Shown: positions 7,970 to 36,487 of the stretch, one piece after another
Numbering within the stretch: position 1 is the stretch's first letter
Layout of the letters: each line of letters begins with the position of its first letter
Source of the DNA: Candidatus Micrarchaeota archaeon
GTDB lineage: Archaea > Micrarchaeota > Micrarchaeia > Anstonellales > Anstonellaceae
Direction: 5' to 3'
Length of the DNA stretch: 64,000 bases
NCBI GenBank assembly: GCA_021814005.1
Contig: JAKAJC010000004.1
Coordinates: forward strand, 230 to 64,229
The notes under the pieces: generated by a model
Database searches by the model: none
What the model was told of the DNA's origin: nothing
The model's input: the letters and a program-made list of their open reading frames with translations, nothing else
Translations under genes and position numbers: made by a program

Positions 7970-8745
7970 GACACAATCGAATTTTCGCCGGCATCAACCA
8001 CGTTCGTGGTCGGCAGCACGAATTCATCGTCCCAATAAACCGGGGCCACATATACAATCGCTTCCTGCACGATGCCGTTCCCTCTGTCGAATGACAGCAG
8101 GGCCCCGTCTTTGGGGTTATAGCAGTAGGTGCCTGAATTGACCGTGAATTTTGTCTCAAAGCATTCGGTCTGGATTGTGCCCCATTTTTTGGATTCCACT
8201 TTCTGCACGCGAGTCATCGTCCGGTTTTTCAGTTCGCCCAGCAGTCCGTTGTCCGGGCTGTAGAGCACAGACCGCGGCTTGGACTGGTTGTAGCACACCC
8301 ATTCCCCCTCGCGCGCGCCGGCCGAGGTTGTCCCGCTGTCATCGCAAAGATAGTAAGCCGGCCCGTTGAGGGCGTAATAGCGGAAGGTGCCGTCGCTGGC
8401 GCGCCATTGGCTTTTTCCGTCGTATGAACGGTTGACGTATCCCATAACCTCTGTGCCGTTCCAAATGATTTTGTATTCGGCATGCCACGAATGATTGGTC
8501 TCCAGTTCAAGAAGGCGCATCATCTCGTTTCTCGCGTCGCCTGCCGCCGCGGGTGCGGGAGTTCCATTTTGCGGAAGAGCCGCGCCGGCCGAGTTGTTAG
8601 GTTTCACCGCGCCGACCGTATTTTTGTCTTCAACCGGGCCCGAGCCGCCCGCCGCAGGCTGCTGATTTTGCGCCTGGGTGCAGCCGATGAAAATAAAACC
8701 GACGAAAATAAGAGAAATTAAAAAAAGAAATTTCAGCATGTTCAA
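7966..8745 (-). CDS. Hypothetical secreted/lipobox protein (259 aa)
   Basis: N-terminus MNMLKFLFLISLIFVGFIFIGC has a signal peptide ending in Cys, followed by a Gln/Pro/Ala/Gly-rich linker. It is wedged between psmA and SBDS with a 4-nt overlap to the SBDS start. Confidence 0.7.
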   Translation of the reverse strand: MNMLKFLFLISLIFVGFIFIGCTQAQNQQPAAGGSGPVEDKNTVGAVKPNNSAGAALPQNGTPAPAAAGDARNEMMRLLELETNHSWHAEYKIIWNGTEVMGYVNRSYDGKSQWRASDGTFRYYALNGPAYYLCDDSGTTSAGAREGEWVCYNQSKPRSVLYSPDNGLLGELKNRTMTRVQKVESKKWGTIQTECFETKFTVNSGTYCYNPKDGALLSFDRGNGIVQEAIVYVAPVYWDDEFVLPTTNVVDAGENSIVS

Positions 8746-14032: not shown

Positions 14033-14971
14033 ATGGCAGACGAACTCGAACCGCCCGTCAACCGCCTCGGCATGAGCGCGGCGGAATTCAGCGAACTGGC
14101 GATGCGCCTGCGCGCGAAGCAGCCGCAGCTGCGCGCCATTGCCCAGCGCCTGCTGGCCGCGCGGGTCGTTATCAATTCAGTCGAGGAGCCGCTGCGCGAC
14201 GCCACAAGCAAACTGCTGGAGGCCGGGGAAATCCCGCCGGCAAAACTCAAAGACCAGTTCCTGTCCATGCGCCGCGTCAAGGAGGATGCAGAGCGCACTG
14301 CCGACTTCTACAAAGCGGCCGGCAACGCCCTCTCGTCGCTCTTTCTCTCCCCGCTGCCGCAGCAAAAGCATGCGGACGCGGCCGGCAAGAGAATGATTGA
14401 GCTTGGAGACGAATGGGAAAAATGCCGCTCAACAAATAGGCCCCGCGCCGATTACATCCGCCTGCTGCTCCGCGATTTGAGTTACACGATATTCTCCCTG
14501 CCCCTCACCCCGCCCGCCGACGGCATGGGCGCGGACCAGCGGCGCGAACTGCTGATGAGCGAAGCGATGGGGCGCGCAAAAGTCCAGACTCTTCAAACGC
14601 AAATTCCATTCGACACCGGCAACGGCATCATCTACCGCTCGCTGGAGCAGGCGCAGGCCGAAGCCGCGCAGCAAGCCGGACAAAAACTGGCGCCAATGCC
14701 GGGCCAGCCTTCGCGCCGCCCGTTGTCGGCCGTGGTCTATTCCCCTCCTCCGTCCATCGCCTCCGCTCCCCGCTCCAGAGCAAGCGGCGCCGGCATAAAG
14801 CCGGACCGCGCGGAGATGGTGCGGCAGATGGCGGTGCAATCGGCCCGCACGCGGCGCATCACTCCCGCGATAAGGCCGATTCCCCCCGCCGGAAAAACAA
14901 AATCATCCAAATCAAAATCTTCAGCGCGAAAACCAGCGGCAAAGAAAAAGAAACCAGAGCGGGGTGCCTGA
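14033..14971 (+). CDS. Operon gene 2: 312-aa soluble protein, helical N-terminal part with a Pro/Ser/Arg/Lys-rich basic tail
   Basis: No hydrophobic segment. Tail reads ...PPAGKTKSSKSKSSARKPAAKKKKPERGA. A GAAGTGA SD-like site lies 6 nt upstream of the ATG. Confidence 0.8.
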   Translation: MADELEPPVNRLGMSAAEFSELAMRLRAKQPQLRAIAQRLLAARVVINSVEEPLRDATSKLLEAGEIPPAKLKDQFLSMRRVKEDAERTADFYKAAGNALSSLFLSPLPQQKHADAAGKRMIELGDEWEKCRSTNRPRADYIRLLLRDLSYTIFSLPLTPPADGMGADQRRELLMSEAMGRAKVQTLQTQIPFDTGNGIIYRSLEQAQAEAAQQAGQKLAPMPGQPSRRPLSAVVYSPPPSIASAPRSRASGAGIKPDRAEMVRQMAVQSARTRRITPAIRPIPPAGKTKSSKSKSSARKPAAKKKKPERGA

Positions 14972-14974
14972 GCA

Positions 14975-16141
14975 ATGGTCGATTTTCTGGTGGCTGTCCC
15001 ATACGGCATAGCCATCGGCACCGGAATCGTCGCATTCGCCTACATGATAGGCTCGCTTCTGCAGTCGGACGCCATGAAATCGTGGAGCCGCCTTGAGCTT
15101 GGAGAGCTTGTGGTCTCGGCCATTCTTGTGGTGCTGGTTGCCGAGGCGCTCAGTCCGGCGGGGCAGGCCGGCATCATCAAGGCCTTCACCGGCGTGTCGA
15201 TGGGAATAGACGAGCTGCAGTCGAGGATGTATGTCTACATGGAGCTGCCGCTGGAAAAAGTGACAGAAGCCGTCGCAATAAGCAGCATGCATCTCAGCCG
15301 CATCATTTCCTACAATTACAACTACCAGCTGCCAATTCCCTACTTTTCGCCCACCGGCTCATCCAGCCCGGGCGCGGGAGCGGGGCCGCTGCAACTGTCG
15401 GTAATGATTGGCATGGATTCCACCGCTCTCAATCTCATGCTGGTCCATGCGGTCAAGCTGGTGTTTGTCTTCCTGATTTTCCTGCTGGGCACGTTCTTCA
15501 TGCCGCTCGGCATCATCCTGCGCTTCATCCCGCCTTTGCGGAAAATCGGAAGCATGCTGCTGGGCACGGGCCTGGCCGTCTATCTGGTGTTTCCCATCGC
15601 CATCTTCTGGGGCACGTCACTGCTGGCATTTTCGGTGAGCCCGCCCGATTACGACGCTGGCCGCCTGGTGCAGGACCCCGGCCGGCCTCCAACTTCCGGA
15701 TTCGTGTGCAGCACCGTCACGTCCGCCCTCTACAGCGCGGGCGAGCAGATTCCCGCATGGATAATCGGCGGAATAGTCTGCATCCCGACAATCATCACCG
15801 GCGGATACGTGGCCTGCGTCGGCACGCCCGGCTCGCCTCCGACATACGGGGGCGGAGTTGCCGGCATCGTTGCATACCTGATGTGGCTGTTCCAGTACGG
15901 CTTCCCCATCGCCACAACACAGTCGCTCAAGAGCGCGGGCGACACGCTGACGCCGGACTTCGTCTCCTCCGGCGTGTACCAGCCCATGGTGGGCTACCTT
16001 CTTCCATTGGCGGTGGTGCGAAATCTTGCGGTTCTTTTCATCGTAATCCTCGCGCTGGCGGCAACAATAATCCTGGCGCGCCAGTTCGCGCAGGTGCTGG
16101 GCGCGGAAGGGCAGTTCTACGGGCTGACAAAACTGGTGTAA
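14975..16141 (+). CDS. Operon gene 3: 388-aa polytopic membrane protein, paralog family member
   Basis: Starts 3 nt after the gene 2 stop. Carries Y-x17-E (AFAYMIGS...SRLEL), LRFIPPLRKIGSMLLGTGLAVYLVFP and the C-terminal VLGAEGQFYGLTKLV motifs. Confidence 0.85.
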   Translation: MVDFLVAVPYGIAIGTGIVAFAYMIGSLLQSDAMKSWSRLELGELVVSAILVVLVAEALSPAGQAGIIKAFTGVSMGIDELQSRMYVYMELPLEKVTEAVAISSMHLSRIISYNYNYQLPIPYFSPTGSSSPGAGAGPLQLSVMIGMDSTALNLMLVHAVKLVFVFLIFLLGTFFMPLGIILRFIPPLRKIGSMLLGTGLAVYLVFPIAIFWGTSLLAFSVSPPDYDAGRLVQDPGRPPTSGFVCSTVTSALYSAGEQIPAWIIGGIVCIPTIITGGYVACVGTPGSPPTYGGGVAGIVAYLMWLFQYGFPIATTQSLKSAGDTLTPDFVSSGVYQPMVGYLLPLAVVRNLAVLFIVILALAATIILARQFAQVLGAEGQFYGLTKLV

Positions 16142-16144
16142 TGG

Positions 16145-17197
16145 ATGGAAAACACGGCAGGAAAAATCGGTTCGGTTTCCCGTTTCGGGTTCGCCCCACT
16201 CGCAGTCCTCTCCCTGCTGTTTCTAGTCTCATCCTCTTCGGCCATCTTCGAGCCGCAGCTCTCGTGCTTCAACCAGACCTACAACATGGTGTATGATTTC
16301 GGCTCGCCAATCATCGCCGTCATTTTCATCATGGGCGTGCTCATCGCGATTGCGTACATGCTCGCGCAGCTTTTGGAAAAACCCGAGCTGTCGGTGTGGG
16401 CCAAGAGCGAAATAGTCACCCTGGGCTTTTCCATCCTTCTCATCGGCGCGGTGGTGGGCACGTTCGGACTTTCCTGCACAATCTCGAACTCGATGGTGTT
16501 TTCCGACTCGCGCGAATTCGCCAACAGCAGCGTGGTGGGGTCCGGCGCGCCGGCCAACGTTTTCACCAGCCCCGCGCAGAGGGCGGTGCAATATATCGAC
16601 AAGCTCACGCAGACCTACGGCCTGCGCCTCGCATCCGACCTCACCCGCCAGGCGGTGAACGACCAGCTCGGCGCGGTGGCATACGCGTACTGGTCCGTGC
16701 CGGTGCTTGACGGCGGCGGGCTTGCATACAAAGCCAACCAGCGCGCATGGGCGGCGCAGAAAGACATTCTCATCGACCTCTACATGCCGATGATGATTTC
16801 GCTGCAGGTGCAGAAATTCATGCTCAACCTGGCCATGGTCGGCGTGCTGAACATTCTTCTGCCGGCCGCGCTGCTTTTGCGCACGTTCTTCTTTTCGCGC
16901 GACATCGGCAACCTGCTCATCGCGCTCTCGTTTGCAATCTTCTTTGCCCTGCCGGTAGTCTATTCGTTCGGCTTCGAGGCGTCGGCAAATCTGCAGAAAC
17001 AGCTCTGTCCGTCGGGCTGCGACCCGCTCAATCCGTTCGGGCAGCTGAACATAGTCAAGGACCGCGTGGTTGGCGACAGCTATGCGAGAATCGGCTTCAT
17101 CTCCACACAAGCGATTTTAATCCCTAATCTCGCGCTGGTTGTGATGATAACCATGACCATGGCCCTAAACAAGGCCTTGAGAGGGTTCACAGGATGA
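16145..17197 (+). CDS. Operon gene 4: 350-aa polytopic membrane protein, paralog family member
   Basis: Starts 3 nt after the gene 3 stop. Carries AIAYMLAQ...WAKSEI and LRTFFFSRDIGNLLIALSFAIFFALP. The C-terminal tail motif is degenerate (KALRGFTG). Confidence 0.85.
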   Translation: MENTAGKIGSVSRFGFAPLAVLSLLFLVSSSSAIFEPQLSCFNQTYNMVYDFGSPIIAVIFIMGVLIAIAYMLAQLLEKPELSVWAKSEIVTLGFSILLIGAVVGTFGLSCTISNSMVFSDSREFANSSVVGSGAPANVFTSPAQRAVQYIDKLTQTYGLRLASDLTRQAVNDQLGAVAYAYWSVPVLDGGGLAYKANQRAWAAQKDILIDLYMPMMISLQVQKFMLNLAMVGVLNILLPAALLLRTFFFSRDIGNLLIALSFAIFFALPVVYSFGFEASANLQKQLCPSGCDPLNPFGQLNIVKDRVVGDSYARIGFISTQAILIPNLALVVMITMTMALNKALRGFTG

Positions 17198-20100
17198 GAA
17201 ATGAAAACGAAAACCCGGCGCGCCGCGAATCCGGCGTTTGCTTTGCGCCAGTCAATACGGCGCCAGCCGGCTTCCTGCCGCTGCACGCGCCGCATGTTTT
17301 CCTCTTCCTCCTCTGCCTTCTCTGTATCTCTCCAATAATTTTCTCCCAAAACACCACAATCCAGCCCGTGCTCACCGCCCAGAACGCGACTTTCGGGTTC
17401 GACAATTACGTGCGGGCAACCCTCGCGGCCGCCGCCCTCATGGCCGCAATCATGGCTCTGGTCTACATGGCAGGCATATTTTTCCAGAGCGAGGATGCCA
17501 AACAGCTGGCGCGCACTGAAATTCTGCAGACTGCTCTCAGCGTGATAATAGTCGCATTTCTTCTGGCCATTCTGCTCGGCGTCGACACCGGCCTTCGCCT
17601 TACCTCGGCCGAAATAGTCTCGCCCTGCGTGGGCCGCACCCTGCCCGCAAGCATCACGTCCGCCACTCTTCTCAACCAGTATGCATTCTGCTATGCGCAG
17701 GGCCTCAACGAAATGGCCATCGCGCAGGGCGACACCACAATCCGCAAGTCTGTCACATTTGCCAAGAAAGCGTATCGCATGGAAGGTTTCCAGACAGATT
17801 TGTGGTGGCTGCTCTACGGCGGCCTGACGCGCCGGCCCGATGCCAACCTGCGCCTTGACTCGGAAATCATGGGACAAGAGTTCACTCTTCTCACGTCATT
17901 CATGGTGAGCCTGCAGGGGCAGCTGGCATTTCTGCAATATATCGTGCCCGCGCTCGCGCCGGCGCTGCTTTTCCTTGGCGTCATCCTCCGCTCGCTTTTC
18001 TTCACCCGCAAACTTGGTGGCATGATGCTGGCAGCGGGAGCCGGATTATTGCTGGTGTGGCCGGCCACCTATCTGCTCTCATGGTTCACATTGCAGGTTG
18101 CGGTGTTCGGGCCGTCGGTGATGGGCGAGGAGCCGGGCTCGACCTGTCCAACCTCATGCAAAATCCTTCCCCCCGCCGGCTACAACATCTCAACAGCAAA
18201 TCCCGATTCATGGGGCAGTCCGCCTGCGGGTTCGCCTTATGCAACCGGCGCAATCAGCGCAAAGCAAATGGCAAGCGCCGGCGGCAGCTCGATTGCGCCT
18301 GACATCGGCGACGAGGCGGCCTGGAAACTGCGGGGCGTCCAGACCTGTTATCCGCAATACAATTACACTGAAGACAAGACAACCGGCACCCGCACATACA
18401 CTCTGCCGGCCGGCTATTCCAGCAGCGTGCCCGTGCAGTCTTCGGACAAGTGCCCCTCGGAGTGCCGCTTCCTTCCCACCCCGACGGATTTGAACTGCGA
18501 CCTGGCCGCCTGTGACAACATACCAATAGCCTGCAAGGCAATCAGGGCCATGAACCTTTCCACCTCGCCCCTGCCGAACCCGCCGGACAACTGCAACTCG
18601 TGCACCAGCTGCCCGGCGTTCTGCCGCACAATTTTGCCGCAGGTGAAATATGCAAACCCCGCAAACCCGGCCGCCGGAGTTGTGCCGACAACGAACGCGA
18701 ATTCATGCTCGGCCAATCCCGGCAATGCAACCCTATGCCCGCTCTACTGCCGCTCCTATTTGCACACGGACGCCAGCAACACGATTTCCTATTCCACTCC
18801 CGACTGCCAGGCCGCATGCCAAGCGACTCTTGACAACAAGAAAGACGCGGCAACGAGCCAGCCCGACTGCATGCTCGGCATTCCGGCCGCCATGATGGAG
18901 TGCAACACCCCCAACGTGTGCGGCCCTGCCATGAACCTTGAGGCTGCCATCGCCTCGGGCCGCACCGACCTCTGCCCGATTGAATGCCGCGTGAATTTCA
19001 ATTCATCTGGCACCGAGGACAGATACAAGGACCCGACATTCAACCAATACTGCACCGGCTCCGGCAAGTTCGGCACCGCGTGCGACACGCAATGCCCGAG
19101 CACGTGCAAGGTGAAAGCAAGCGCCGAGAACGCGGCGCTGCCAAATTCATTCTCGCTGGGCGTGCCCAACTCGTTCATAGTTTCGACCGGCGCAGGCAGT
19201 GTTCTTTGCGCGGCAGCCCCCACTTTCACAAACGGCCAGATGGACTCGAGCGTGAACGGGCAGTGCGCACGCTGCCCGCTCTCATGCCGCCTGCGCAACC
19301 CCTCCTCCATCCTCGACCTTGACAACAACCACAGCACTTACTTCTTCTCGCAGTCGCATTATGCCCTCACCTGCAATTACCGCAACACCACCCCAATCAT
19401 CCTGTACTCCGGCGCGTGCAGAAATTCCACATTCCCGCCCGGCTGGCTTGCGTTCGCTTCCGAAGATCCATCCGGCATTTCGTTGAGCCAAATCGGCCGC
19501 GGCCCGCCGGAATGCGCGCCAACCGCCCGCATTTACCTGCGCATGGATTCGTCAGACCCGCTCTGCCCGCTCTTTCTGGCCCCAATCCCGCCTTACATCA
19601 AGGACGGCACTCTTTCAAACGACCCTTCCAATTCCGCGGTGTCTGCCATCATTCCGCCAAACACCGACGTGTCGGCCGAATGCTCCACTCCCGATGCGCA
19701 GAAATACTGCCTCGGCAAAGACCCGCAGGGCCAGCCCTATTGCGACATTTCCTGCCAGCCAGACCGCGCCGTGAACGGGCCGTTCTACTGCCACTTGACC
19801 GACCTCTACAGCCCGCTCTCCAGCATTCCCGACAACACGCAGCGCTGCGGCGCCTGTTCGAGCCCGGCAGCAGACAATTCCAAGGGGCCGCAATGCCAAG
19901 TCATGCTGACAAGCGGCAGCACCCTCTATCTGCCCAAAGGCTGCGACCCGTCCTGCGCGCCCGGCTCGCTTGACACTGCGACCGGAATAATCCTCAACCC
20001 CGACACAGACCCCAAGTCGAGGGCTTCATGCGGCGGCTTCTGCTATCCGCGCCTGCCCATCCCCTCGTGCAGCGCATATGCCCCCGCCAGCACAACCAAT

Positions 20101-21423
20101 CCCAACGGCCGCGCGTTCGCCTCCTGTGCCGCCTGCCCAACCGACTGCCGCTATGATTATCTCACTGCCGCGGGCATCAGGCGCCCAAACAGCCAGGACA
20201 ACTACTGCGGCTGGAGCTTCACCGCGCCAACCGCATGCTTTTCCATCACGCTGGAGCGCCTGCGCGGCAGCGACATCCCAAGCGTGAACAACACCCGCTA
20301 TTATTCGTGCACGCAGACCGAAGCAGGCCAATACCACTGGGTGCGCACAAGCAGCGGCGTTGACAACAGAAGCGACAGCGGCTGCAACGCGGCCTGGTAT
20401 CCGATTGGCCACTTCACCAACCAAACCGTTGCCAACCTCGCGTGCGGCCCAGGCACTTTCAGCAACACCACGAGCGATGTCTACTCATGCACGCCGGTCC
20501 ACAAGTATCCGGCCCTCGACAGCCTTGTCACCTCTTCGGGCGGGCCTTCCGATTACCGCGAATGCGGAGACATAAGCGTCAACGGCCAGAATCCGAACAA
20601 CAACCTCTGCGGCGCGCGCACGTTCGGCGGCGCAAGCGTCCAGCTGTGCAAGAACGACCGCGCGGCAACAGATTCGTGCTTTGCCCACTTCAACGCGCTC
20701 GCGGTTGCCTGCCTGCCGATTACCGGCGTGGTGAATGATTACACAGACCCCGCCAACAATCCGACCAAGGCGGAGGAGAGCTGCCAGAACTGCCCGCTCT
20801 TCTGCCGCATAGACAACGGCGGCCAGATATGCTCGCCGTGGTCTGCCGGCGGCGAGCCTCCCAAATGTGATTTCCCCAACCAGTGCGACCGGCGCACTGC
20901 TCAGGGCAGCGGCTACTGCGGCATCCCGTCATCAGCATTCAAAATTGGCCAGGGCTGCGCGAATTACACCGGCGGCTCCGGCGTGGGCTGCCCCGCCCGC
21001 TGCCGCGTTTCACTGCCGTCCGGCAACGTGCCATACGGCTGCTCGGGCGGTGAAATCGGCAACGCATGCTCGCCCGGCAATCTTGATTCGGCATGCACCG
21101 CCACCCCGCCCGACAATCCGTGCGCAGGCTGCGGCGAATGCGACACCGACTGCCGCTCCACGCCTTATGTGCGGCAGAACTGCGACGACCTCTGCCTGCC
21201 GACAGACTTTGCCACCGGAGCCTCGCCCATCACGCCCAAGGACCTTTTGATGTCGTGGGAAGGCGCGTCGGGCAACCCCGACTGGCGCTCATTGGGCTCT
21301 TTGGGCATCGCCGCTTTCCTGCTGCCGATTCTCAACATCATACTCACTCTTGCATTCATCCGCAGCCTCTCGCCGGTGCTGGGCGGCGACATCGAGATTC
21401 CGGGAATACTCAAGGTGCTGTGA
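17194..21423 (+). CDS. Operon gene 5: 1409-aa paralog with a ~1020-aa Cys-rich ectodomain inserted before the last TM
   Basis: ATGA start/stop overlap with gene 4. Carries ALVYMAGI...LARTEI, LRSLFFTRKLGGMMLAAGAGLLLVWP and the C-terminal VLGGDIEIPGILKVL. There are 80 Cys between codons 318 and 1334 (hand count), and many N-x-S/T sequons. Confidence 0.88.
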   Translation: MRNENENPARRESGVCFAPVNTAPAGFLPLHAPHVFLFLLCLLCISPIIFSQNTTIQPVLTAQNATFGFDNYVRATLAAAALMAAIMALVYMAGIFFQSEDAKQLARTEILQTALSVIIVAFLLAILLGVDTGLRLTSAEIVSPCVGRTLPASITSATLLNQYAFCYAQGLNEMAIAQGDTTIRKSVTFAKKAYRMEGFQTDLWWLLYGGLTRRPDANLRLDSEIMGQEFTLLTSFMVSLQGQLAFLQYIVPALAPALLFLGVILRSLFFTRKLGGMMLAAGAGLLLVWPATYLLSWFTLQVAVFGPSVMGEEPGSTCPTSCKILPPAGYNISTANPDSWGSPPAGSPYATGAISAKQMASAGGSSIAPDIGDEAAWKLRGVQTCYPQYNYTEDKTTGTRTYTLPAGYSSSVPVQSSDKCPSECRFLPTPTDLNCDLAACDNIPIACKAIRAMNLSTSPLPNPPDNCNSCTSCPAFCRTILPQVKYANPANPAAGVVPTTNANSCSANPGNATLCPLYCRSYLHTDASNTISYSTPDCQAACQATLDNKKDAATSQPDCMLGIPAAMMECNTPNVCGPAMNLEAAIASGRTDLCPIECRVNFNSSGTEDRYKDPTFNQYCTGSGKFGTACDTQCPSTCKVKASAENAALPNSFSLGVPNSFIVSTGAGSVLCAAAPTFTNGQMDSSVNGQCARCPLSCRLRNPSSILDLDNNHSTYFFSQSHYALTCNYRNTTPIILYSGACRNSTFPPGWLAFASEDPSGISLSQIGRGPPECAPTARIYLRMDSSDPLCPLFLAPIPPYIKDGTLSNDPSNSAVSAIIPPNTDVSAECSTPDAQKYCLGKDPQGQPYCDISCQPDRAVNGPFYCHLTDLYSPLSSIPDNTQRCGACSSPAADNSKGPQCQVMLTSGSTLYLPKGCDPSCAPGSLDTATGIILNPDTDPKSRASCGGFCYPRLPIPSCSAYAPASTTNPNGRAFASCAACPTDCRYDYLTAAGIRRPNSQDNYCGWSFTAPTACFSITLERLRGSDIPSVNNTRYYSCTQTEAGQYHWVRTSSGVDNRSDSGCNAAWYPIGHFTNQTVANLACGPGTFSNTTSDVYSCTPVHKYPALDSLVTSSGGPSDYRECGDISVNGQNPNNNLCGARTFGGASVQLCKNDRAATDSCFAHFNALAVACLPITGVVNDYTDPANNPTKAEESCQNCPLFCRIDNGGQICSPWSAGGEPPKCDFPNQCDRRTAQGSGYCGIPSSAFKIGQGCANYTGGSGVGCPARCRVSLPSGNVPYGCSGGEIGNACSPGNLDSACTATPPDNPCAGCGECDTDCRSTPYVRQNCDDLCLPTDFATGASPITPKDLLMSWEGASGNPDWRSLGSLGIAAFLLPILNIILTLAFIRSLSPVLGGDIEIPGILKVL

Positions 21424-21428
21424 GAAAA

Positions 21429-22718
21429 ATGGCGCGAGCTCAAAAAACAAAAACAAAAAATGAAAAAGAAAACGGCTGCTCCCGTTTCGCGAGCATTGGC
21501 TTCGCGCGCGCCAGCCCTGCGCGCGCCAGCCCCGCGTTTTCTTCGGCGCGCTCGAGCGCGCTGCGGCATTTTGTTTTCTTGTTTATTACGGCCTCTCTGT
21601 TCCTTATCCCATCAATTCACGCGGCCGCCGCATGGCAGCCGGCAGTTTTCGCAGCCGTGCTCATCTCCGTCTCCGTGCTGGCAGTCGTTTACATGATTGT
21701 AACCGTGCTGAAATGGGACAGGTTCAAGGGCATCATAAAAGACGAGCTCGGCCAGACGTTCATCACATTTCTTCTGGTGGTCCTGCTTGTTGCAGGCATG
21801 TCCGAAGGCGAAACCCAAGCGTCGAAACTTGTGTGCGGCATTTCCGGCATGCCAGACTCCGGCTTCTGCCCGACTCCCGCGCGCGACACCATGATTTTCT
21901 GCAAAACTGCCGGAAGCAATCCCACCACATGCCCCATCACCGGCAGCCAGCCGCTCAACAACTGGGCCCTCTCGCTCAACACCAACGCGCAGTCTCTCCT
22001 GAGCACCAACCTGCTCGCCAAGGCGCTGGAGTTCAACCAAAAACTCGGCTATGTGAGCTCGGTGTCGGGCTTCTGCAACATGCTTGGCGTGGGCTTCTCC
22101 ATCGCCGGCTGCTCCACTTACGGCGTGCTGCGCGGACCCGTCGGCCAGCTGCTCAACGCAATCGGCATCGGATTGATGGATTTGCAGGCAGAGCGGATTC
22201 TGCTCCAGCTCAACACTGCCGGTTTCACGCTGAGCCTGCTTTTGCCGCTTGGCATCCTGCTCCGCGCGCTGCACTGGACCAGAAAGGCGGGCGGCACGCT
22301 CATCGCCCTCGCACTCTCGCTCTACTTCATTTTCCCCGCGTCGCTTTTGCTTGGGCAGGCGATGGCAGACCAGTTCATCAAGACGGGCAGCCCGTATCAG
22401 GCCCTCGCAGCCGGCCCGACGTTTCCGGCAATGAGCGGCAGCTACAATCCGCTCGACACATCTACCGTCGAATGCAATCCATTTGACCCAAGCACCGGCA
22501 AGATGGTCAACACCATGAACAGCTTCCTCACGCGCAGTCCTTCCGACCCCGCGAACGTCAAGAATCCATCCACCATCGACCAGATTCTTTTCGTTGTGAT
22601 GATACGCAACCTGATGATAACCATCGTGGCGCTCACAGTCACCCTCTCCGCCACGCGCGTGCTGGGCCACGCCCTTGGCGCGGAAATCGACGTGTGGGGC
22701 ATTGCGAGGCTGAGCTAA
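21429..22718 (+). CDS. Operon gene 6: 429-aa polytopic membrane protein, paralog family member
   Basis: The track ORF (21093..) overlaps gene 5. The ATG at 21429 lies 5 nt after the gene 5 stop, with AGGTG upstream. Carries AVVYMIVT...IIKDEL, LRALHWTRKAGGTLIALALSLYFIFP and the C-terminal ALGAEIDVWGIARLS. Confidence 0.85.
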   Translation: MARAQKTKTKNEKENGCSRFASIGFARASPARASPAFSSARSSALRHFVFLFITASLFLIPSIHAAAAWQPAVFAAVLISVSVLAVVYMIVTVLKWDRFKGIIKDELGQTFITFLLVVLLVAGMSEGETQASKLVCGISGMPDSGFCPTPARDTMIFCKTAGSNPTTCPITGSQPLNNWALSLNTNAQSLLSTNLLAKALEFNQKLGYVSSVSGFCNMLGVGFSIAGCSTYGVLRGPVGQLLNAIGIGLMDLQAERILLQLNTAGFTLSLLLPLGILLRALHWTRKAGGTLIALALSLYFIFPASLLLGQAMADQFIKTGSPYQALAAGPTFPAMSGSYNPLDTSTVECNPFDPSTGKMVNTMNSFLTRSPSDPANVKNPSTIDQILFVVMIRNLMITIVALTVTLSATRVLGHALGAEIDVWGIARLS

Positions 22719-25700
22719 ATGGAGAAAAAGAACCGGCCGCATTCACCGAAGTTCTCATCGCCATCGCCCATGCCGCACCTTGCGCTGTTATTTCTCTTGG
22801 CCGCAGTTCTGCTCGCTCCATTTGTTTCGGCAGACATAACCGCAACAATTGATTACAACAGCGCCCCTCCCCCGCCCGCCTCGCCCTGGCTCACCATAAC
22901 TCCGATGACTGTGGGCGTGAGCGCCGACTGCGGCACCATACCGCCCTGCGTGCCGCCGTTCAGAATCAATTTCCAGTTCGTCTGCGGCGGCACCCCTGTG
23001 CAGGAAACATTCACAAACGTCCCGCCGGCCTCCCGAACAGCATACACCTATTATCCAAACTCCGACCCCGCATGCCGCGAGCCGACGCCGCTGAATTCCA
23101 TAATCACAATCACCGACACTACTGGACAATCATTTTTCACGCAAAGTTTCCCCGTAGCTCTGGCAAATGGTACAGACACCACTCCGCCGGGCATCTCGTG
23201 GAATCCCGTGCCGCCGCCAGAATATGATGCGGGCGCAACCATCAGCTTCGGCTTCACAGTCACCGACCCTGACGACAACACCAACGCGATTCCGACATTG
23301 TATCCAAATGTCGCCACGGCCGAGGTGGAAATCACCGACTTGGGAAACGGCCAGGTCTATGGGCCATATGACATGGGCCCGTTCCCTCCACCGAACGGCT
23401 GGAGCACCCAAGTCTTTCATATAGAAGGCACCCCCAGCGCCGACCACACTGTTGAAATCAACTGCAGCCGCCTCAACTGCGTCGGAGATTTGCAAATAAA
23501 AGTCAGGTCCCACGACCCTGCGGGCCTTGGCATTACCCTGCCGCCAATGATTGTGCGCAGGCGCGGCGGCCTGGTTCTTCCCTCTCCCATATTGGGCATC
23601 ATCCCGCCCGCACCCGTCTGCCCCAACGCGGCCATCCGCGCCATGGCAAACCAGCCGTCTGGCTCCCCTGCAATAGACAGCCATGAATACAGCTGGTCCA
23701 TCACTCCAAATCCTCCGGTGCAGATAGATACTGTGCCCGACACCGCCAAAACGGGCGCCACTTCAGACACATTCGACTGCGCGGCGCGCAACTGCCAGAA
23801 CGGCCAGACCGTGTCAGTAAGCGTGCTCGCCATCGCCGGCGCCCAGCGCTCCCCTCCCAACGCCACCCTGATTCTCGTCGACGGCAGCAGCCTTGACTGC
23901 AGAATGCCGGCAGCCCCGCTTCTCACCAACCAGACAATATCCATCTCGCCCTTCAACGCGATAGTGCTGGCAAACCAGAGCAACAACGATCCGCGAGCCG
24001 TGCTCCACCGCTATGTCTGGACCATGGCCGACGGCACAGTCATCGAATCCCCGCTCATGCCCCTGCCAATCCAAAATGTCACATCAGCTCCCGTGCCCTG
24101 CGCCGCGAATCCAAACCTCTACTGCCCGTCGGGAGGAACCGTCCTTCTCACGGTCTATTCATACACTGCGCAGAATGTGCAATCCCAGCCAGCATTTATC
24201 TCCATCTTAATTCCGGCGCGCTCAGCCCTCAATCCGCCGGTGGTTGTCACCAAGCCCTTCAGCCCGTATGACAACGACACCATCGTGCTTGTTGCAAACA
24301 ACCAGAACGAAGAGGTGGACCGGCACCAGTACCGCCTGCTCATCATCAATGCGGACGGCACTATATACCAAGAAATCGATGCTCCAATCTACGACACTGT
24401 TTCCACAACCGCGGCAGACAAACACACCACCACATCCAAGCCATTCACCTGCACGACAAGCGTATGCAGGGGCCGCTTTGCCAACATAACCGCCCGCGCC
24501 TACAATTCCCTTGGCTGGTCAGACTGGTCTCCCTGGCTGAGCGTCCCATTCGGCCCGCCGCCGATTCCTGCGCCAATACTTGTGCGCATCGACCCGATTC
24601 CACCCGGCAATTCGATGCTGTCAGACATCAATTCCGGACTTGGCGCGCTCCTCAACACCTCGCTTGCCTACAGCTTCACAATAACCCCGCCCGCCGGCCA
24701 GCCGCCGTTCAACGACTATATTCCAACCCTCACAGTCAACGGCGCAGACGCGCCGGTTTCATCCAGCCGCTCGGGCAACAATCTCATCATCACTCTGGCC
24801 TGCACCCCGTCATCATGTCCGAACGGCTCAATCCTCACATACAAGGTAATCGGCGTGCAGGCGGGAGCGAATTCCACTCCCCTGTATTTCTCGCTTGTAG
24901 TTCCGCAGGCGAGCGGCATGCCCGCGCAGGTGGGCGTCATCTGTTCCGGCGCCGAACTGCAAAGATGGCTGCAGGTGATGGCCATCGGCATGATGGCCCT
25001 TCTCGCCCTTATCGCGCTCGTCTATATGATTGGCGAGGCGCTGCACCACCCGCAGCTTTTGGAATGGTCCAAATCAGAAATCGGGCACGTGGGCATGACC
25101 ATCATCCTCTTCTTCCTCATCGTATGGCTGATTCAGTTCCAGTGCAACCTGACGGTGGGCGAATTCCTCAACTGGTCTGGCTCGTCAAACCCCCTCTACT
25201 CGTCAGGCATGACGCTTTCACAGGCAGGTCTCAAATCGCTTGAATGGGGCATCACCCAGACGCGGCTCACCCTCGTGGCCATGCGCTACGAGATGGGAGT
25301 GCTCAACATGCGGGCCACCTATTCCTCCTACTCCACCCAGTTCCCCGGAATGGGCGGCAACGGCTACAGCTTCATGCCCTTCTCGGGCGATTACACCCTG
25401 CTCGGCTCGTTCGGCATGCTCACCAACCTCAACTCCACTTTCCTGCTCGCGCTCCTCTTCCAGCTATTCTCGCTGTTCTTCTTTTCCTCTTCCAGCGGGC
25501 TGTTCATATTCCTCGTGCCGGTCGGCCTCATACTGCGCTCGGTTCCGTTCATACGCGGATTCGGCGGCTCGCTGGTGGCCATCGGCATCGGCTTCTACAT
25601 ATTCTATCCGATTCTGCTTGCCTTCACCGGCCTTCTGCTCGCGCCGCTCTACTCGGGCATTGACTCCACCAGCCAGCTCGGCATCGCCGACGCCTCGCAG

Positions 25701-25991
25701 CTGGAGGCAAAAGAGCTTGCGATTCACACGCCATTCAGCAGCACCGGCCTTGCTGGCGACAACATTTTCAGCTACAATCCGGGCGACCCGTATCCGGGGC
25801 CGCTGATGCCCACCGCCGGCAAGGACTCGCCGCCGAAGCTGGGAATATATTTCAATCTAACTGCCCTGAATTTCCTGCGCGCCATCCTCATTCCGACCGC
25901 AGGGCTGATAGTGACCGTGTCATTTGTGCGCGACCTCGCGGCCATTTTCGGCGAAGAGGTGGACGCGTCGAAACTGATTGCCATGATTTAG
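22719..25991 (+). CDS. Operon gene 7: 1090-aa protein with a signal peptide, a ~720-aa repeat-containing ectodomain, then the paralog membrane module
   Basis: The ATG abuts the gene 6 stop (TAAATG). There are five C-x4-7-C pairs at aa 249/254, 354/359, 461/469, 578/583 and 695/700. The module begins ALVYMIGE...WSKSEI, then LRSVPFIRGFGGSLVAIGIGFYIFYP, with C-terminal IFGEEVDASKLIAMI. Confidence 0.88.
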   Translation: MEKKNRPHSPKFSSPSPMPHLALLFLLAAVLLAPFVSADITATIDYNSAPPPPASPWLTITPMTVGVSADCGTIPPCVPPFRINFQFVCGGTPVQETFTNVPPASRTAYTYYPNSDPACREPTPLNSIITITDTTGQSFFTQSFPVALANGTDTTPPGISWNPVPPPEYDAGATISFGFTVTDPDDNTNAIPTLYPNVATAEVEITDLGNGQVYGPYDMGPFPPPNGWSTQVFHIEGTPSADHTVEINCSRLNCVGDLQIKVRSHDPAGLGITLPPMIVRRRGGLVLPSPILGIIPPAPVCPNAAIRAMANQPSGSPAIDSHEYSWSITPNPPVQIDTVPDTAKTGATSDTFDCAARNCQNGQTVSVSVLAIAGAQRSPPNATLILVDGSSLDCRMPAAPLLTNQTISISPFNAIVLANQSNNDPRAVLHRYVWTMADGTVIESPLMPLPIQNVTSAPVPCAANPNLYCPSGGTVLLTVYSYTAQNVQSQPAFISILIPARSALNPPVVVTKPFSPYDNDTIVLVANNQNEEVDRHQYRLLIINADGTIYQEIDAPIYDTVSTTAADKHTTTSKPFTCTTSVCRGRFANITARAYNSLGWSDWSPWLSVPFGPPPIPAPILVRIDPIPPGNSMLSDINSGLGALLNTSLAYSFTITPPAGQPPFNDYIPTLTVNGADAPVSSSRSGNNLIITLACTPSSCPNGSILTYKVIGVQAGANSTPLYFSLVVPQASGMPAQVGVICSGAELQRWLQVMAIGMMALLALIALVYMIGEALHHPQLLEWSKSEIGHVGMTIILFFLIVWLIQFQCNLTVGEFLNWSGSSNPLYSSGMTLSQAGLKSLEWGITQTRLTLVAMRYEMGVLNMRATYSSYSTQFPGMGGNGYSFMPFSGDYTLLGSFGMLTNLNSTFLLALLFQLFSLFFFSSSSGLFIFLVPVGLILRSVPFIRGFGGSLVAIGIGFYIFYPILLAFTGLLLAPLYSGIDSTSQLGIADASQLEAKELAIHTPFSSTGLAGDNIFSYNPGDPYPGPLMPTAGKDSPPKLGIYFNLTALNFLRAILIPTAGLIVTVSFVRDLAAIFGEEVDASKLIAMI

Positions 25992-26004
25992 GAGAGAACC
26001 TGCC

Positions 26005-27198
26005 ATGACAAAACAAAAAATAAAATCAAAAACAAATTCGGCCCCCATGTCGGGATTGCTTTCGGCCAGCCGCGCACGTTTCACCCTCTCCTCCTTCTTC
26101 CTCACATTCTTCTTCATCCTCTTCCTCTCGTCAATTCTCGCGGCTCTCGACCCCAACGCCCTCACATGGAGCAATCCCGACAAGCTCATGGTCCGCTCGG
26201 CCGGCTACTTCCAGCCAACCTCGCCCAACAGCTGGTACCGCATGGTCATTCCCGCTCTGGCCATCTGCATTTTTGCCAACACTCTTGTCTATGTGTTCGG
26301 GCGCGTTGCGAACGCGCCGCACGTGGTCCAGTTCGCGAAATCAGAATTCTACCAGGTCACGGCCTCGGCAGTCATGATATTCATTTTGGTGGCCGCGGGC
26401 GCGGAATCATTCCGCTATATTCAGGACAGCGGCCTGCTGCCCGCAGGCACCACGACTTTGTGCTACGGACAGGCGATGTCAGTTTGGGATGTGGGGCCGT
26501 TCGGCATAATCCGCTGCAAGCTGCAGGAGAAAATCGACTATGTTGAAGACCTCTACAATCAGGCATGGACTCTCAACGCCAATGTCGAGCCTCTCACCAC
26601 CTATTCGCTCTACCTCTTCAACATACCCGTCTATGTGTGGGACTGGAACACCGCCCTGCATTCGCAGATGGAGCAGGCCCACTTCATAGCCAACAAGCTC
26701 ACGCCAATCGGCATCAGCCTTCACGCGCAATTCATGTTTGCAGAATATCTTGCCCAGAACATGCTCAACGTATTTTTGCCGGTCGGCCTGCTGCTGCGCA
26801 TCTTCCCCATCCTGCGCGGCATCGGCTCTCTCATGGTGGCCATCTCAATCGGCTTCTTCTTCGTGTTCCCCATCGCATACATTTTGATGGACCCGACAAC
26901 CGTGCGGCCCGACCCTGCCACCCTCATACCGGCGGTCAATGACAACAAGGCCAACGTGTGCTACACTTCGTTCAGCGGCATGGTGACCACCTACACCCAA
27001 ATCGCCCCGAAGGTGGCGCAAAAGGCGGAGACGGCCGACATCACCCAAATAGGCTCGGAACTTGCCAAACTGCAGATAGAGGCGTTCTTCTATCCGCTTG
27101 CCGCGCTTGCCACCGCGCTGGTGTTCATCTCCATCGCCACGCCAATCTTGGGCGGCGACTCGGGGGAAATCATGCACTTCCTCACAAAGGTGATATGA
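26005..27198 (+). CDS. Operon gene 8: 397-aa polytopic membrane protein, paralog family member
   Basis: A GGAGAG SD-like site lies in the 13-nt gap after gene 7. Carries TLVYVFGR...FAKSEF, LRIFPILRGIGSLMVAISIGFFFVFP and the C-terminal ILGGDSGEIMHFLTKVI. Confidence 0.85.
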   Translation: MTKQKIKSKTNSAPMSGLLSASRARFTLSSFFLTFFFILFLSSILAALDPNALTWSNPDKLMVRSAGYFQPTSPNSWYRMVIPALAICIFANTLVYVFGRVANAPHVVQFAKSEFYQVTASAVMIFILVAAGAESFRYIQDSGLLPAGTTTLCYGQAMSVWDVGPFGIIRCKLQEKIDYVEDLYNQAWTLNANVEPLTTYSLYLFNIPVYVWDWNTALHSQMEQAHFIANKLTPIGISLHAQFMFAEYLAQNMLNVFLPVGLLLRIFPILRGIGSLMVAISIGFFFVFPIAYILMDPTTVRPDPATLIPAVNDNKANVCYTSFSGMVTTYTQIAPKVAQKAETADITQIGSELAKLQIEAFFYPLAALATALVFISIATPILGGDSGEIMHFLTKVI

Positions 27199-27199
27199 G

Positions 27200-30100
27200 T
27201 TGGGAAAAGAAAAAGAAATTGAGAGCATGCGCGCACAGGCGCCGCACCCGTCGCGGGAATCGGACAGTGGAACAAATATCAATCTGTTGTTTTTGGCCGC
27301 CATCTCCCTCTCCCTTCTCTCCCTCATTTTCCTCTCGGGCTGCGTGCAGCCCAACTCCAACCTCTCCTACGGCGCGTGCTGCATGCAGAGCAATTCGTTC
27401 TATACCTGCCAGGTGCGCACCGACGCCAACGGCACGCAGCAGCGGGATTCGAACGGCAACCTTCTCATCGACGGCTGCGGCCCCTGCATTGCCGTTGCCA
27501 AGAACGGCACGGTTTACAACTCGTCCGGCCCAACCGACGCCGCGCTCTGCACAAACAACTGCAACTTCAAGCAGTCCAACTGCACCAATTTCGACGGCAA
27601 AAACACCTGCTATCTTGTGGACAAGAACATGCAGACAACCAACGAATCGGTGGGCCCGATTTGCATGGCCGCAACCGACCCGTGCGTGCAGAACAACTGC
27701 ACTGCCATGGTTTACGGCAAGCCGCTTCCATCCCCCAAGCGCAGCATCAACTCCCAGTCGGTGCAGCAGTCCAACAACCCGGACGGCAACGCGTTCAAGC
27801 AGGACGCGGCCAACCAGAAGACCGGCCTTGTGGGCCGCATCATGCAGTTCAGCCAGTTCAACACCCGCCTTGCCCGCCTCTTGAAAAGTCCGGACTGGTC
27901 TGTGAACACTTTGCGCCTCGGCCTCCAAGGACAATTTTCCGACTACGACCGCGCGCGTTTCTATCTTCCGCCCTCGGATTACTTCTGCCCGCAAAACAAC
28001 CCCAACGCAATAGTTGACCGCTACACCGCCTATCTGGACGGGTTGAGCGCGCTCCCGCCTTTCCGCTCATACTACACTGTCAATTACGCAACAACCTGCA
28101 GCCCCGGCCACAAAAAACCCCCGTATGGCGGCTGGTATTCAACATGCACCTGCACTCCCTCCAGCCCTCCCGCCCCGCCGTGCGGCAAGGATTTCATGGG
28201 TTCTTCTGCCCTTGATGCAGAAGACATGTGCAACTCCTCCTGCACGAATTTCAGCCGTGTATACAGCACGCCCAATTTCAAGAATCCGCTCAGCCTCTGC
28301 CGCCTCGAGCCGGCATCAGGCGCCAATCTCTCCTACTTCTACTGCGATGTCAATCCCGGGCTCAAGTTCACCATCGCCGACCCGTCCGACCAGCTGCGCG
28401 CATATCTTTCCTGCCAGAAAGCATGCAGTTACAGCCAATACCGCACATGCAGCCAGAATCAGGACCTTCTGACCTACAACGCCAATCTCCACCCCAATAT
28501 TTATTCGCCCTCCAATTGGCCTCCACAAACACCTCCGGCCGGCTCAATCCAGCCGTTCATCGACATCGACCAATATGCCAAGGCGCTTGCGAACGCTTAT
28601 CCGACTCCGACCGGGCCGGCCTGGTGCCCCGCGCTTGTGGCGCTAAGACCCGACCCTGCCAAGGAGGCGGCGATGAAGAATGACCCGCGCAATTACTACA
28701 AATGCCTTCTGCCCGAACCCAACAGTGCCGGCGCCAACCAGACCATAGCCGCCTACGGCATCACGGCCGACCAGTACAACACCACCTATATGAGCGAGGG
28801 CATCAAGCCCGGGCCTGCCGGCGGCAAGGTGTTTGAGTGCACCGGCGGCGGCGACTGCCTCTCCGGCATCTGCGACAAATCCACCTATTCGCGCACCTCA
28901 TGCTTCCTCAAAGACGGCTCTGCGGTTGACTGCGCCTGCCGCTGGGTAACCAATTGCAAGCTCGCGTACCAATGCTCGGGTTACGAAGCCCGCAGCATCA
29001 GAAAAGACCAGTGCGAGGTGAACCTCAACAACTGCCAGGAGGCACAGGGAGGCTCGGACTATCCGGTGCTGATGTGCGAGTACCGCATCAATCCGCTCAC
29101 TCCCCAGACCGCCAATCCGCCCATCCATGGCCTGCGCACCCCCTACGCCTCCAGTGGCAACTATGTTTTCAACGACGGCCGCAACGGCTACGGCATTCTG
29201 CATATCGAGGAATTCAACAAATACATCGACGCTGCGGTCGCGGACGCCGAGCTTGCCACGGTGCAAAGGCCCTCCACTTCGCTCGAATTGTGCCCAAGCC
29301 GCGTGCGCCGGCCATGCGCCTCTTCAACAGAACAGGGCTGCTATGTGAGGAACACCAATCCTCCCGACGTGTCGGTGCTCTGGCAGCATGACGGCGACAG
29401 CGACGTATACCAGAACATACCGGCCTACACGCCCACCTACGACGCCTGCCCAAGCGGCGGCACGCTGTCCAATGTCTCTGGCTGGAAAGACACTCCCAAG
29501 GCATTTGGCGACTATTTGCGCGACAGTTCCTACCCCTCGCGCGAAACATTTGCTCTCGTGCCCACGCAGCAGGCGGTGGCCGGGCCGGGAGGCGCGCATT
29601 TCATCACCACCAGCCGCTATGTGACATGGCAGAATGACAACTGCTATTTCTCGCTCTCCGGCTACACTCTGAGCGGCTCAAAATGTCCGGCAGACCAGGT
29701 CCGCTTCCCGCTCTTTCAGGCCTGCAACATGAGCGTTAATTCCGAATATTTCAACAAAGCCGCAGGCAGCAGGAGCTATCCTTATCAGGACGCGTATCAG
29801 GCCGAAATATACAATGCCCGCGGGCAGGATGCGGCCGGCTCCGCGTTTGATGTGAAATATGTGGACGGCTATTCCTACGACCCAAACAACAACGACACCC
29901 TTTATTCCTACGGCGGCTCTGACCCCTACCGCATAGACAAGACGTGGGCAATCTACAGTTTCGGCGCCTGCCAGGTCCAGCCAAGCACCCCATCCGCTCC
30001 GGCGGTGTCGGGCAAGAGCCCGCCGCCGGTGGTGTTCAGCTACGGCATGTGCCGCTCGTGCGGCACCCTGCTGTCCATGGCTTACCAGCCGGTGAAGGAT

Positions 30101-36311: not shown

Positions 36312-36392
36312 CTATTTTTTTGCTGTTTTGCTGTTGCCTATTTTTGCTATTCTGTTACTGCCTATTGTTCGCTGTTCTGCTTTGCCTGCTTC
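36312..36392. repeat. Adenine-poor T/G/C low-complexity tract with degenerate GCTGTT / TGCCTATT repeats
   Basis: Sequence is ttttttgctgttttgctgttgcctatttttgctattctgttactgcctattgttcgctgttctgctttgcctgctt, in a divergent intergenic region. It generates the artefactual N-terminus MLFCCCLFLLFCYC of track ORF 36320. Confidence 0.6.
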
Positions 36393-36487
36393 AATTCGGG
36401 CATAAAAGAATATATACCCCAATCAGGGCACGGGGAGCGCATAAGCCAATCCATCTCCCTTTTATTCCTCCATGCCTTTATTTTTTT

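Follow-up and report, generated by a model that had tools for sequence, protein, structure and literature searches.

Six tandem paralogs of an undescribed membrane module in Micrarchaeota, a candidate hetero-oligomeric complex of the cell envelope

Introduction

Mce1A-F and Mcm2-7 are obligate hetero-oligomers that are derived from homo-oligomers. In the Mce1A-F system, six tandem operon paralogs of fixed order and number contribute one subunit each to a hetero-hexameric assembly that spans the envelope (PMC9882608). VirB6/TrbL proteins are polytopic inner-membrane proteins, which form the oligomeric base under an extracellular stalk, and in Rickettsiales VirB6 is present as tandem duplicates with large extensions. 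Here we analyze a stretch of DNA of 64,000 nucleotides (nt) from a Candidatus Micrarchaeota archaeon (assembly GCA_021814005.1, contig JAKAJC010000004.1), which we refer to as the window. Six adjacent genes of the window, g3 to g8, encode paralogs of a polytopic membrane module; we term these genes the array, and their positions in this and in related loci p1 to p6.

Micrarchaeota belong to the DPANN archaea, are small and live attached to the cells of a host. To our knowledge, the route by which material passes between a DPANN symbiont and its host cells is open, and no component on the symbiont side has been identified. In Micrarchaeota, most biosynthesis is missing, transporters are few, and the cells apparently depend on contact with the host cell (PMC8975820). 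Cryo-electron tomography (cryo-ET) of the Micrarchaeon ARM-1 revealed a barrel-shaped, 21-nm structure in the envelope, the composition of which is not established and which docks a host nanotube, as well as a six-fold surface layer (S-layer) with densities that reach the membrane (PMC11329633). Based on the comparative data presented below, we propose, with a probability of roughly 55%, that the six proteins form one hetero-oligomeric membrane complex as the base of an envelope apparatus for host contact or uptake.

Six adjacent genes encode paralogs of one membrane module

The six genes lie on the forward strand, as do all features described here unless noted otherwise. They are g3 at position p1 (14975 to 16141; 388 amino acids (aa), without a signal peptide), g4 at p2 (16145 to 17197; 350 aa, the sole position without an acidic C-terminal tail), g5 at p3 (17194 to 21423; 1409 aa, with a large ectodomain that splits the module), g6 at p4 (21429 to 22718; approximately 429 aa, starting with ATG at 21429 or alternatively with GTG at 21420), g7 at p5 (22719 to 25991; 1090 aa, with a signal peptide and an alternative start at 22770), and g8 at p6 (26005 to 27198; 397 aa, alternative start at 26047). 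The start of p3 overlaps the stop of p2 (ATGA).

Two motifs recur in all six proteins. Motif 1, Y-x15-[KR]-x-E, is encoded at 15041 to 15097 in g3, 16355 to 16411 in g4, 17464 to 17520 in g5, 21690 to 21746 in g6, 25023 to 25079 in g7 and 26290 to 26346 in g8. Motif 2, LRx5Rx2Gx14P, is found at 15518 to 15595, 16877 to 16954, 17986 to 18063, 22260 to 22337, 25533 to 25610 and 26794 to 26871, respectively. In a MAFFT alignment of the six modules, the invariant columns are Y23, E41, L182, R183, R189, G192 and P207 in the numbering of g3. A first-pass annotation of the window, made from the sequence alone, had noted motifs 1 and 2 as invariant in g3 to g8, and we recovered both in all six genes. 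It had likewise described a [LF]Gx[ED] tail placed 14 residues from the C terminus in four of the proteins and 16 residues from it in a fifth. This placement is confirmed for g3 (16097 to 16138), g5 (21379 to 21420), g6 (22674 to 22715) and g7 (25947 to 25988), and for the 16-residue tail of g8 (27148 to 27195); g4 has no such tail.

Pairwise BLASTP comparisons among the six paralogs gave colinear matches of 35 to 48 bits. When a profile hidden Markov model (HMM) was trained on five of the modules and used to score the remaining one, each paralog reached between 49 and 80 bits (p1, 70.4; p2, 49; p3, 79.6; p4, 79.6; p5, 76; p6, 70.3). As controls we used global shuffles and 500 shuffles within 20-residue blocks, which keep the layout of transmembrane (TM) segments; the best score from the 500 layout-keeping shuffles was 14.7 bits, and global shuffles scored at most 9.4 bits. 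Because the leave-one-out scores far exceed those of the layout-keeping shuffles, the similarity among g3 to g8 is homology, and not the result of chance or of membrane-protein composition. BLASTP, MAFFT and leave-one-out HMM scores thus agree with the earlier view of the six genes as true paralogs, and the motif coincidences, a lack of significance of which had been named beforehand as possible grounds for refutation, are significant by comparison to the shuffles.

Gene content, order and orthology are fixed across species

An exhaustive HMM search over 1.84 billion representative proteins identified 2,932 clusters of the module family at E≤1e-3, and 2,032 at E≤1e-10. The best 150 of the 2,932 matches were inspected; among these, LRx5Rx2G..P recurs, and the C-terminal tails are of six sharply separated types, which correspond to the six array genes of the window. 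Word-indexed searches for proteins of this family had a very low sensitivity (12, 1 and 20 matches), and g3 alone retrieved no related loci; the alignment of the six paralogs contains no conserved stretch of 7 to 10 columns. Through a g5-type tail peptide we collected 72 species-representative loci, in which all open reading frames (ORFs) were scanned with the module HMM. Since loci were gathered by this single peptide pattern, lineages without a g5-type tail are under-sampled. Practically every contig-complete locus among a total of 77 carries six tandem module genes on the same strand with the same size pattern. Our detailed comparison is based on 47 species loci with six contiguous copies, corresponding to 282 module sequences.

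All 47 complete loci contain exactly six copies in the order p1 to p6, with a median ORF gap of -1 nt between array genes. In comparisons between loci, the best BLAST match of a gene was its positional counterpart in 92% (p1) to 99.9% (p3; 2161 of 2162 best matches) of cases. Every position group forms a perfect bipartition in a neighbor-joining tree of the 282 modules, and identity across species is 30 to 34% within a position as against 16 to 20% between positions. HMMs of the six subfamilies sort 183 database proteins into six groups; six of these proteins are weakly resolved, namely four that make up a single cluster in the divergent lineage L002, in addition to P0145 and P0146. The order p1 to p6 is kept in the compact lineages L078, L080 and L081, which are without ectodomains, and is roughly kept in L002, the most divergent lineage found. 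As position groups and order are conserved across lineages, the six duplications took place before the sampled Micrarchaeota radiated. The analyzed loci show no loss, gain or relocation of a copy since then.

By analogy with Mce1A-F and Mcm2-7, a one-of-each gene content, fixed order and tight packing would be the signature of an obligate hetero-oligomer that arose from a homo-oligomer, and we regard this reading as well supported. Our proposal of a hetero-oligomer is made because the array combines six-of-six content with fixed order and tight packing. The first-pass annotation had suggested a hetero-oligomeric membrane platform or ring. The 47 loci with fixed p1 to p6 and a median gap of -1 nt lend strong comparative support to a hetero-oligomer, and the ring shape, the contacts and the stoichiometry are putative. 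Alternatively, the six proteins could act independently, each alone or as a homo-oligomer in the role of a receptor, adhesin anchor or small transporter, within a stable tandem family. Ectodomains indeed differ strongly by position and lineage, as would be expected of diversified surface receptors. In tandem families of independent receptors, however, the number of copies and their order are usually variable, whereas all of the 47 loci have exactly six genes, the order is constant, each position is occupied by a single ortholog, and there are neither losses nor extras within the array. The overlapping or abutting genes are consistent with coupled translation, and the one position that is always tail-less suggests a division of labor in one assembly. 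We therefore consider independent action of the six proteins quite improbable, and we favor a single hetero-oligomeric complex.

Nearly all of the genomes with related loci carry the title Candidatus Micrarchaeota or Micrarchaeia, and Anstonellales and Bilamarchaeaceae are among them; the exceptions are two titled "ainarchaeum" and a few titled only "archaeon" or "uncultured archaeon". Named homologs at NCBI are all annotated as "hypothetical protein" and, except for two, labeled Candidatus Micrarchaeota or Micrarchaeia. These two are the p6-type homolog P0176, labeled "Candidatus Marsarchaeota archaeon", and P0183, labeled only "uncultured archaeon". The Marsarchaeota label of P0176 is probably a binning or labeling error, or could mark spread outside the phylum. 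Two separate full arrays, each with the downstream gene g9 described below, occur within one metagenome-assembled genome in the case of L044 and L047 (PMV_4.13, JAKEGJ01), and likewise of L038 and L069 (both JBDRIM01), reflecting either duplication of the whole system or a strain-mixed bin.

Anatomy of the module and its conserved residues

An AlphaFold2 model of p6 (g8; mean per-residue confidence, pLDDT, 80.3; predicted template modeling score, pTM, 0.74), in combination with hydropathy, gives the order of elements. The N-terminal part consists of a signal-peptide-like helix, which is absent in p1, followed by TM1, a 13-residue loop and TM2. In the model, TM2 is a 38-residue helix that runs on out of the membrane, after which two beta-hairpins and a helix of 34 residues precede a further helix of 49 residues. 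The latter ends as TM3 and leads, through an 8-residue turn with the Rx5R motif, into TM4, after which come a variable loop, TM5 and a short terminal helix. The ectodomains are attached to this scheme before the last TM helix in g5 and N-terminal to the module in g7, as had been noted from the sequence.

The module probably has its N terminus outside and its C terminus inside, because the insert between TM4 and TM5 of g5, which is rich in Cys and in glycosylation sequons, must be outside. The same orientation follows from the enrichment of Lys and Arg in the TM3-TM4 turn (31%, against 12% in the TM1-TM2 loop) and from the confinement of Cys to the outside regions: Cys amounts to 0% in the TM1-TM2 loop, the TM3-TM4 turn and the tail, and to 2.1 to 2.5% in the two regions predicted to be outside. 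An outside domain of approximately 105 aa would then be formed by the extensions of TM2 and TM3 together with the two beta-hairpins. The conserved Glu of motif 1 is predicted to lie at the cytoplasmic end of TM2, and Arg, Arg and Gly of motif 2 in the TM3-TM4 turn. This would place Glu, both Arg, Gly and the tails on the cytoplasmic face, and Pro within TM4.

Across the 47 species and six positions, Glu is present in 282 of 282 sequences, Pro in 281 and Gly in 280. The first Arg is found in 277 sequences and the second in 274, with Lys in a further 7, and Pro sits 15 residues after the Gly of the Rx5Rx2G motif. Two residues that are invariant in the six genes of the window, and that the first-pass annotation had included in its motifs, are only partly conserved in the family, namely the Tyr of Y-x17-E (67%) and the Leu that begins motif 2 (65%); the basic residue two positions before Glu is present in approximately 78%. 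The five residues that remain are the same in all six positions, which is consistent with either a repeated equivalent contact or a fold-stabilizing cluster at the cytoplasmic face.

The tails, by comparison, are specific to each position and of fixed length across the family. Position p1 ends in LGGE..Y..G...L. ([LFMI]Gx[ED] at 14 residues from the end in 42 of 47 loci), p3 in LGGDIEIPGL.K.. (47 of 47 at 14), p4 in AGAEVDVSAL.R.. (16 of 47 at 14, the remainder being variants of the AGAE type), p5 in YGEEIDLSRL.QMV (25 of 47 at 14, the remainder being variants of the YGEE type) and p6 in LGGD..E......KV. (43 of 47 at 16); p2 has no tail in any of the 47 loci. Five TM helices, an invariant Glu at the start of TM2, the Rx5Rx2G turn between TM3 and TM4 with its Pro, six ordered paralogs and position-specific tails together characterize a new family.

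The invariant Glu raises the possibility of an ion-driven complex, in which this residue would carry protons or other ions and the ring would be a channel, a transporter or a stator-like motor that powers the outer parts. An acidic residue that is 100% invariant at the boundary of TM2 and an invariant Pro kink in TM4 are compatible with such a function, for which the energy would come from the membrane potential, as there is no ATPase nearby. Yet the Glu is placed at the cytoplasmic interface beside two invariant Arg, where a structural salt bridge fits better than a buried proton site, and we judge an ion-driven complex very improbable. In the hetero-oligomer that we favor, Glu and Arg residues would form a repeated salt-bridge contact, either within or between subunits.

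Comparison with described families and systems

Searches of Pfam and NCBIfam gave no match for any of the nine proteins encoded by the operon, g1 to g9, and for the six module proteins there was no Pfam match at E≤1. The module family thus stands apart from the known families with which a match had been named as possible refutation of its novelty. Among 73 diverse module members there were only scattered single Pfam matches at E≤0.1, with nothing consistent, and the same was true for 45 g9 regions, 18 g5-type and 27 g1-type proteins. Sequence searches of the PDB with the module profile, g9, g1, g7 and a g5 profile returned no match, Foldseek found nothing at E<0.39 for the p6 model, and tblastn detected no copies in plasmids and phages. 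Full-text searches of the literature did not reveal any account of the six-gene cluster. By every test applied, the family is large, undescribed, phylum-wide and without known relatives in sequence or fold.

The tandem VirB6-like duplications of Rickettsiales had been mentioned from the outset as the only analogy, with no sequence evidence for homology, and our results agree. An hhalign comparison of the 73-sequence module profile with Agrobacterium tumefaciens VirB6 yielded a probability of 0.19%, none of the 73 members matched TrbL/VirB6 (PF04610), and the module does not share the fold of the solved VirB6 structure (TrwI, 7o3v_F). Neither the window nor the 77 loci contain VirB4, VirD4, VirB11 or other genes of a type IV secretion system (T4SS). 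The array differs from VirB6/TrbL systems in being without T4SS ATPases or other VirB parts and in its location, which is a chromosomal core locus. The idea of a divergent type IV secretion or conjugation channel that arose from VirB6/TrbL-like duplications as in Rickettsiales, attractive for its polytopic proteins and tandem extended copies, is effectively refuted by these comparisons and by the absence of copies from the plasmids and phages searched.

As a logical analogue of the way in which the system may work, Mce1A-F comes closest. The Micrarchaeota operon nevertheless lacks an MCE domain (PF02470), a YrbE permease and an MceG/Mkl ATPase, and no ABC ATPase is encoded nearby. Mce proteins have one TM helix each, whereas the Micrarchaeota paralogs have five; no similarity in sequence or fold was found, and the operon belongs to an archaeon, the cells of which have one membrane and an S-layer. 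The layout of TM2, outside domain, TM3 and TM4 brought to mind permeases of the MacB/FtsX type. We reject this relationship, as we do one to LptF/G-type permeases, since there is no support from fold or profile and no ABC ATPase. MAPEG proteins, four-TM bundles of approximately 150 aa with a family profile of their own, share 6 to 9% identity with the module, from which only some helices could be matched, and have neither the outside domain nor the fifth helix nor the motifs; the match score is lower than that needed to tell true relatives from generic helical bundles. No profile or solved structure of an archaeal S-layer protein matched.

Outer parts and partner genes

The ectodomain of p3 (18079 to 21288, approximately residues 296 to 1365) is an insert of approximately 1,070 aa between TM4 and TM5, and holds almost all of the 85 Cys of g5 as well as 15 N-glycosylation sequons. 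Within it, 18145 to 21159 encode 11 motifs of the type C-P-x-x-C-[RK]-hydrophobic, many of them invariant in orthologs. They resemble a repeated disulfide or metal-binding unit and match no known fold. The N-terminal ectodomain of p5 comprises approximately 700 aa and extends to about 24920, the module beginning at 24921. It is lineage-specific, with p5 lengths between 303 and 1115 aa and a median of 361 aa.

Directly after p6 follows g9 (27200 to 31864; 1554 aa, 75 Cys), the product of which would be either secreted or N-terminally anchored. Its homologs are Cys-rich proteins of 1,100 to 1,700 aa with an N-terminal hydrophobic segment. A g9 homolog is present in 61 loci, and in 60 of these it is located directly downstream of p6 on the same strand. 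The C-terminal region of g9 and the g5 protein proved unrelated in an hhalign comparison. In one clade (L055:19299-19604, L043:18937-19278, L030:19872-20210 and about 12 more loci), a multi-zinc-ribbon protein of approximately 112 aa (Pfam DZR) is encoded directly after g9 on the same strand, and a secreted or membrane-anchored Lon_C protease of approximately 560 aa a little further on.

Upstream of the array, g1 (9646 to 13956) encodes a giant type-I membrane protein of 1437 aa. Translation probably begins with the ATG at 9646, within an ORF that is open from 9535 (TTG), and 1437 aa is also the length called on identical contigs. The protein comprises a signal peptide, a Cys-containing ectodomain of approximately 170 aa, one TM helix and a variable Gly-rich part of approximately 1,200 aa that is probably cytoplasmic; the hydrophobic segments are residues 44 to 74 and 246 to 271. 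Homologs of g1 are present in 37 loci, mostly divergent upstream of the array or after g9. Their conservation is limited to the first approximately 270 aa, including the juxtamembrane motif LTGRNPFxGFNxGGxRxGxHIRYQARGRG, and the remaining approximately 1,000 residues are Gly-rich and variable. Between g1 and the array, g2 (14033 to 14971) encodes a soluble protein of 312 aa without TM helices and with a basic tail rich in Lys, Arg and Pro. As its only homolog was found in the close relative L007, g2 is a lineage-specific accessory.

At L080:927-17641 (GCA_026414185.1, labeled Micrarchaeota), six compact paralogs of 301 to 484 aa occur without g9. An unrelated giant ORF of 2,200 aa lies divergently upstream of them, and SecD/SecF directly downstream on the same strand. 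Because L080 has a compact array without g9, the six-gene core is older than its giant decorations.

Proposed assembly and role

We propose that one copy each of p1 to p6 would assemble in the cytoplasmic membrane as a single hetero-oligomer. Its simplest form would be a pseudo-six-fold ring of 30 helices, derived from a homo-oligomer. The five acidic or amphipathic tails would form a cytoplasmic collar, which would be asymmetric because p2 has no tail. The complex would serve as the membrane base for disulfide-rich outer parts, comprising the p3 insert, the lineage-specific N-terminal domain of p5 and the secreted g9 protein, and g1 with its huge cytoplasmic region would associate on the inside. 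Its most likely role would be that of an envelope-spanning apparatus for contact with the host cell or for uptake, without a dedicated ATPase. Consistent with the latter, no VirB4/HerA-type, FtsK-type, ABC or AAA+ secretion ATPase is linked to the array in the window or in the 77 loci; the HerA gene of the window is 7 kb from the array and is not a recurrent neighbor.

The array resembles the ARM-1 barrel in several respects: the phylum is the same, and the barrel is embedded in the envelope, at the site of host contact and in a surface with six-fold order. No sequence is assigned to the barrel, and its link with the array is a candidate only. In a more far-reaching version of our proposal, which we consider decidedly unlikely, g1 to g9 would be the symbiont side of an intercellular bridge, in which a hetero-hexameric ring of 30 helices with giant disulfide-rich outer parts forms or seats the 21-nm docking barrel of ARM-1, and host nanotubes or host material enter through it.

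The six-fold S-layer of ARM-1, with its densities down to the membrane (PMC11329633), is also compatible with an envelope scaffold, that is, a six-subunit housekeeping anchor that ties a six-fold S-layer or pseudo-periplasm to the membrane, with g9 and the p3 insert as spacers. The array is present in every complete locus analyzed, no ATPase is linked to it, and it is a chromosomal core locus, not a mobile element, situated among housekeeping genes (exosome, proteasome and NMD3 in the window; ScpB and PadR in other clades). On the other hand, comparisons with Pfam and PDB revealed nothing akin to S-layer or SlaB-like proteins, a lattice anchor needs no six different subunits, and the strongest conservation is cytoplasmic, which would be odd for a purely external anchor. 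We thus consider such a scaffold unlikely and rank it second, after an apparatus for host contact or uptake.

Several points weigh against a host-contact or uptake complex of six subunits. Contact among the six proteins is a hypothesis based on comparative genomics, and fixed co-occurrence could reflect six separate functions that are jointly needed. The suggested function is a guess based only on anatomy and on the lifestyle of the organisms. Lineages of the L080 type, without g9 or large inserts, show that the core does not depend on the giant outer parts. The module has so far been found only in Micrarchaeota, a statement that covers the best 150 of the 2,932 matches. Finally, the 21-nm barrel of ARM-1 may consist of host proteins, according to its authors (PMC11329633).

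With approximately 2,900 sequence clusters and an occurrence across the sampled orders of the phylum, the family is large for one that is absent from the searchable literature, and with the module Pfam would gain a new membrane fold family. To groups that study ARM-1 or Ca. Micrarchaeum harzensis by cryo-ET and proteomics, the array offers a concrete, testable candidate for envelope structures of these organisms. If our proposal is correct, the array would represent a clean case of a membrane protein in which an ancient homo-oligomer became an obligate hetero-oligomer, similar to Mcm2-7 and Mce1A-F. If the intercellular bridge were also true, this would be the first molecularly identified host-coupling machine of DPANN archaea, made from a fold without known relatives.

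Genomic context and additional observations

The region from 9646 to 31864 is filled by the nine tightly packed, co-directional genes g1 to g9, and from g2 through g9 successive starts and stops overlap or are 1 to 14 nt apart. Identical genes are also present on contigs of GCA_027332545.1 and GCA_027332495.1 and in ENA/Logan assemblies. In the window, the operon is flanked by genes for exosome subunits (RNase PH and a KH/Rrp4-like protein), proteasome alpha, NMD3, DUF2070 and a LonB-like ATPase, as well as HerA, GatD/GatE, Kae1, a thermosome subunit and three tRNAs. The housekeeping genes that recur near the array in the 77 loci encode ScpB, PadR, an AAA_18 kinase, a PP-loop protein, a Lon_C protease and a double zinc ribbon protein.

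Between 18000 and 30000, which corresponds to g5 to g9, the GC skew of the forward strand is -0.18 to -0.20, and in most of the other parts of the window it is approximately -0.02 to -0.10; this may stem from the Pro-, Thr-, Ser- and Ala-rich composition of the ectodomains. The LonB-like AAA+ protein (36320 to 37924, 534 aa) has matches to Mg_chelatase/AAA and LonB LID and a weak zinc-ribbon match. It has no match to the Lon protease (S16) domain and may be a protease-less relative of LonB. On the reverse strand, a very large ORF of 1375 aa at 50 to 4177, with hydrophobic segments at approximately residues 928 to 1002, has no Pfam match. The same applies to a 259-aa protein encoded at 7966 to 8745 on the reverse strand, between SBDS and proteasome alpha, the N-terminal hydrophobic segment of which ends in a lipobox-like FIGC and which contains seven N-glycosylation sequons.

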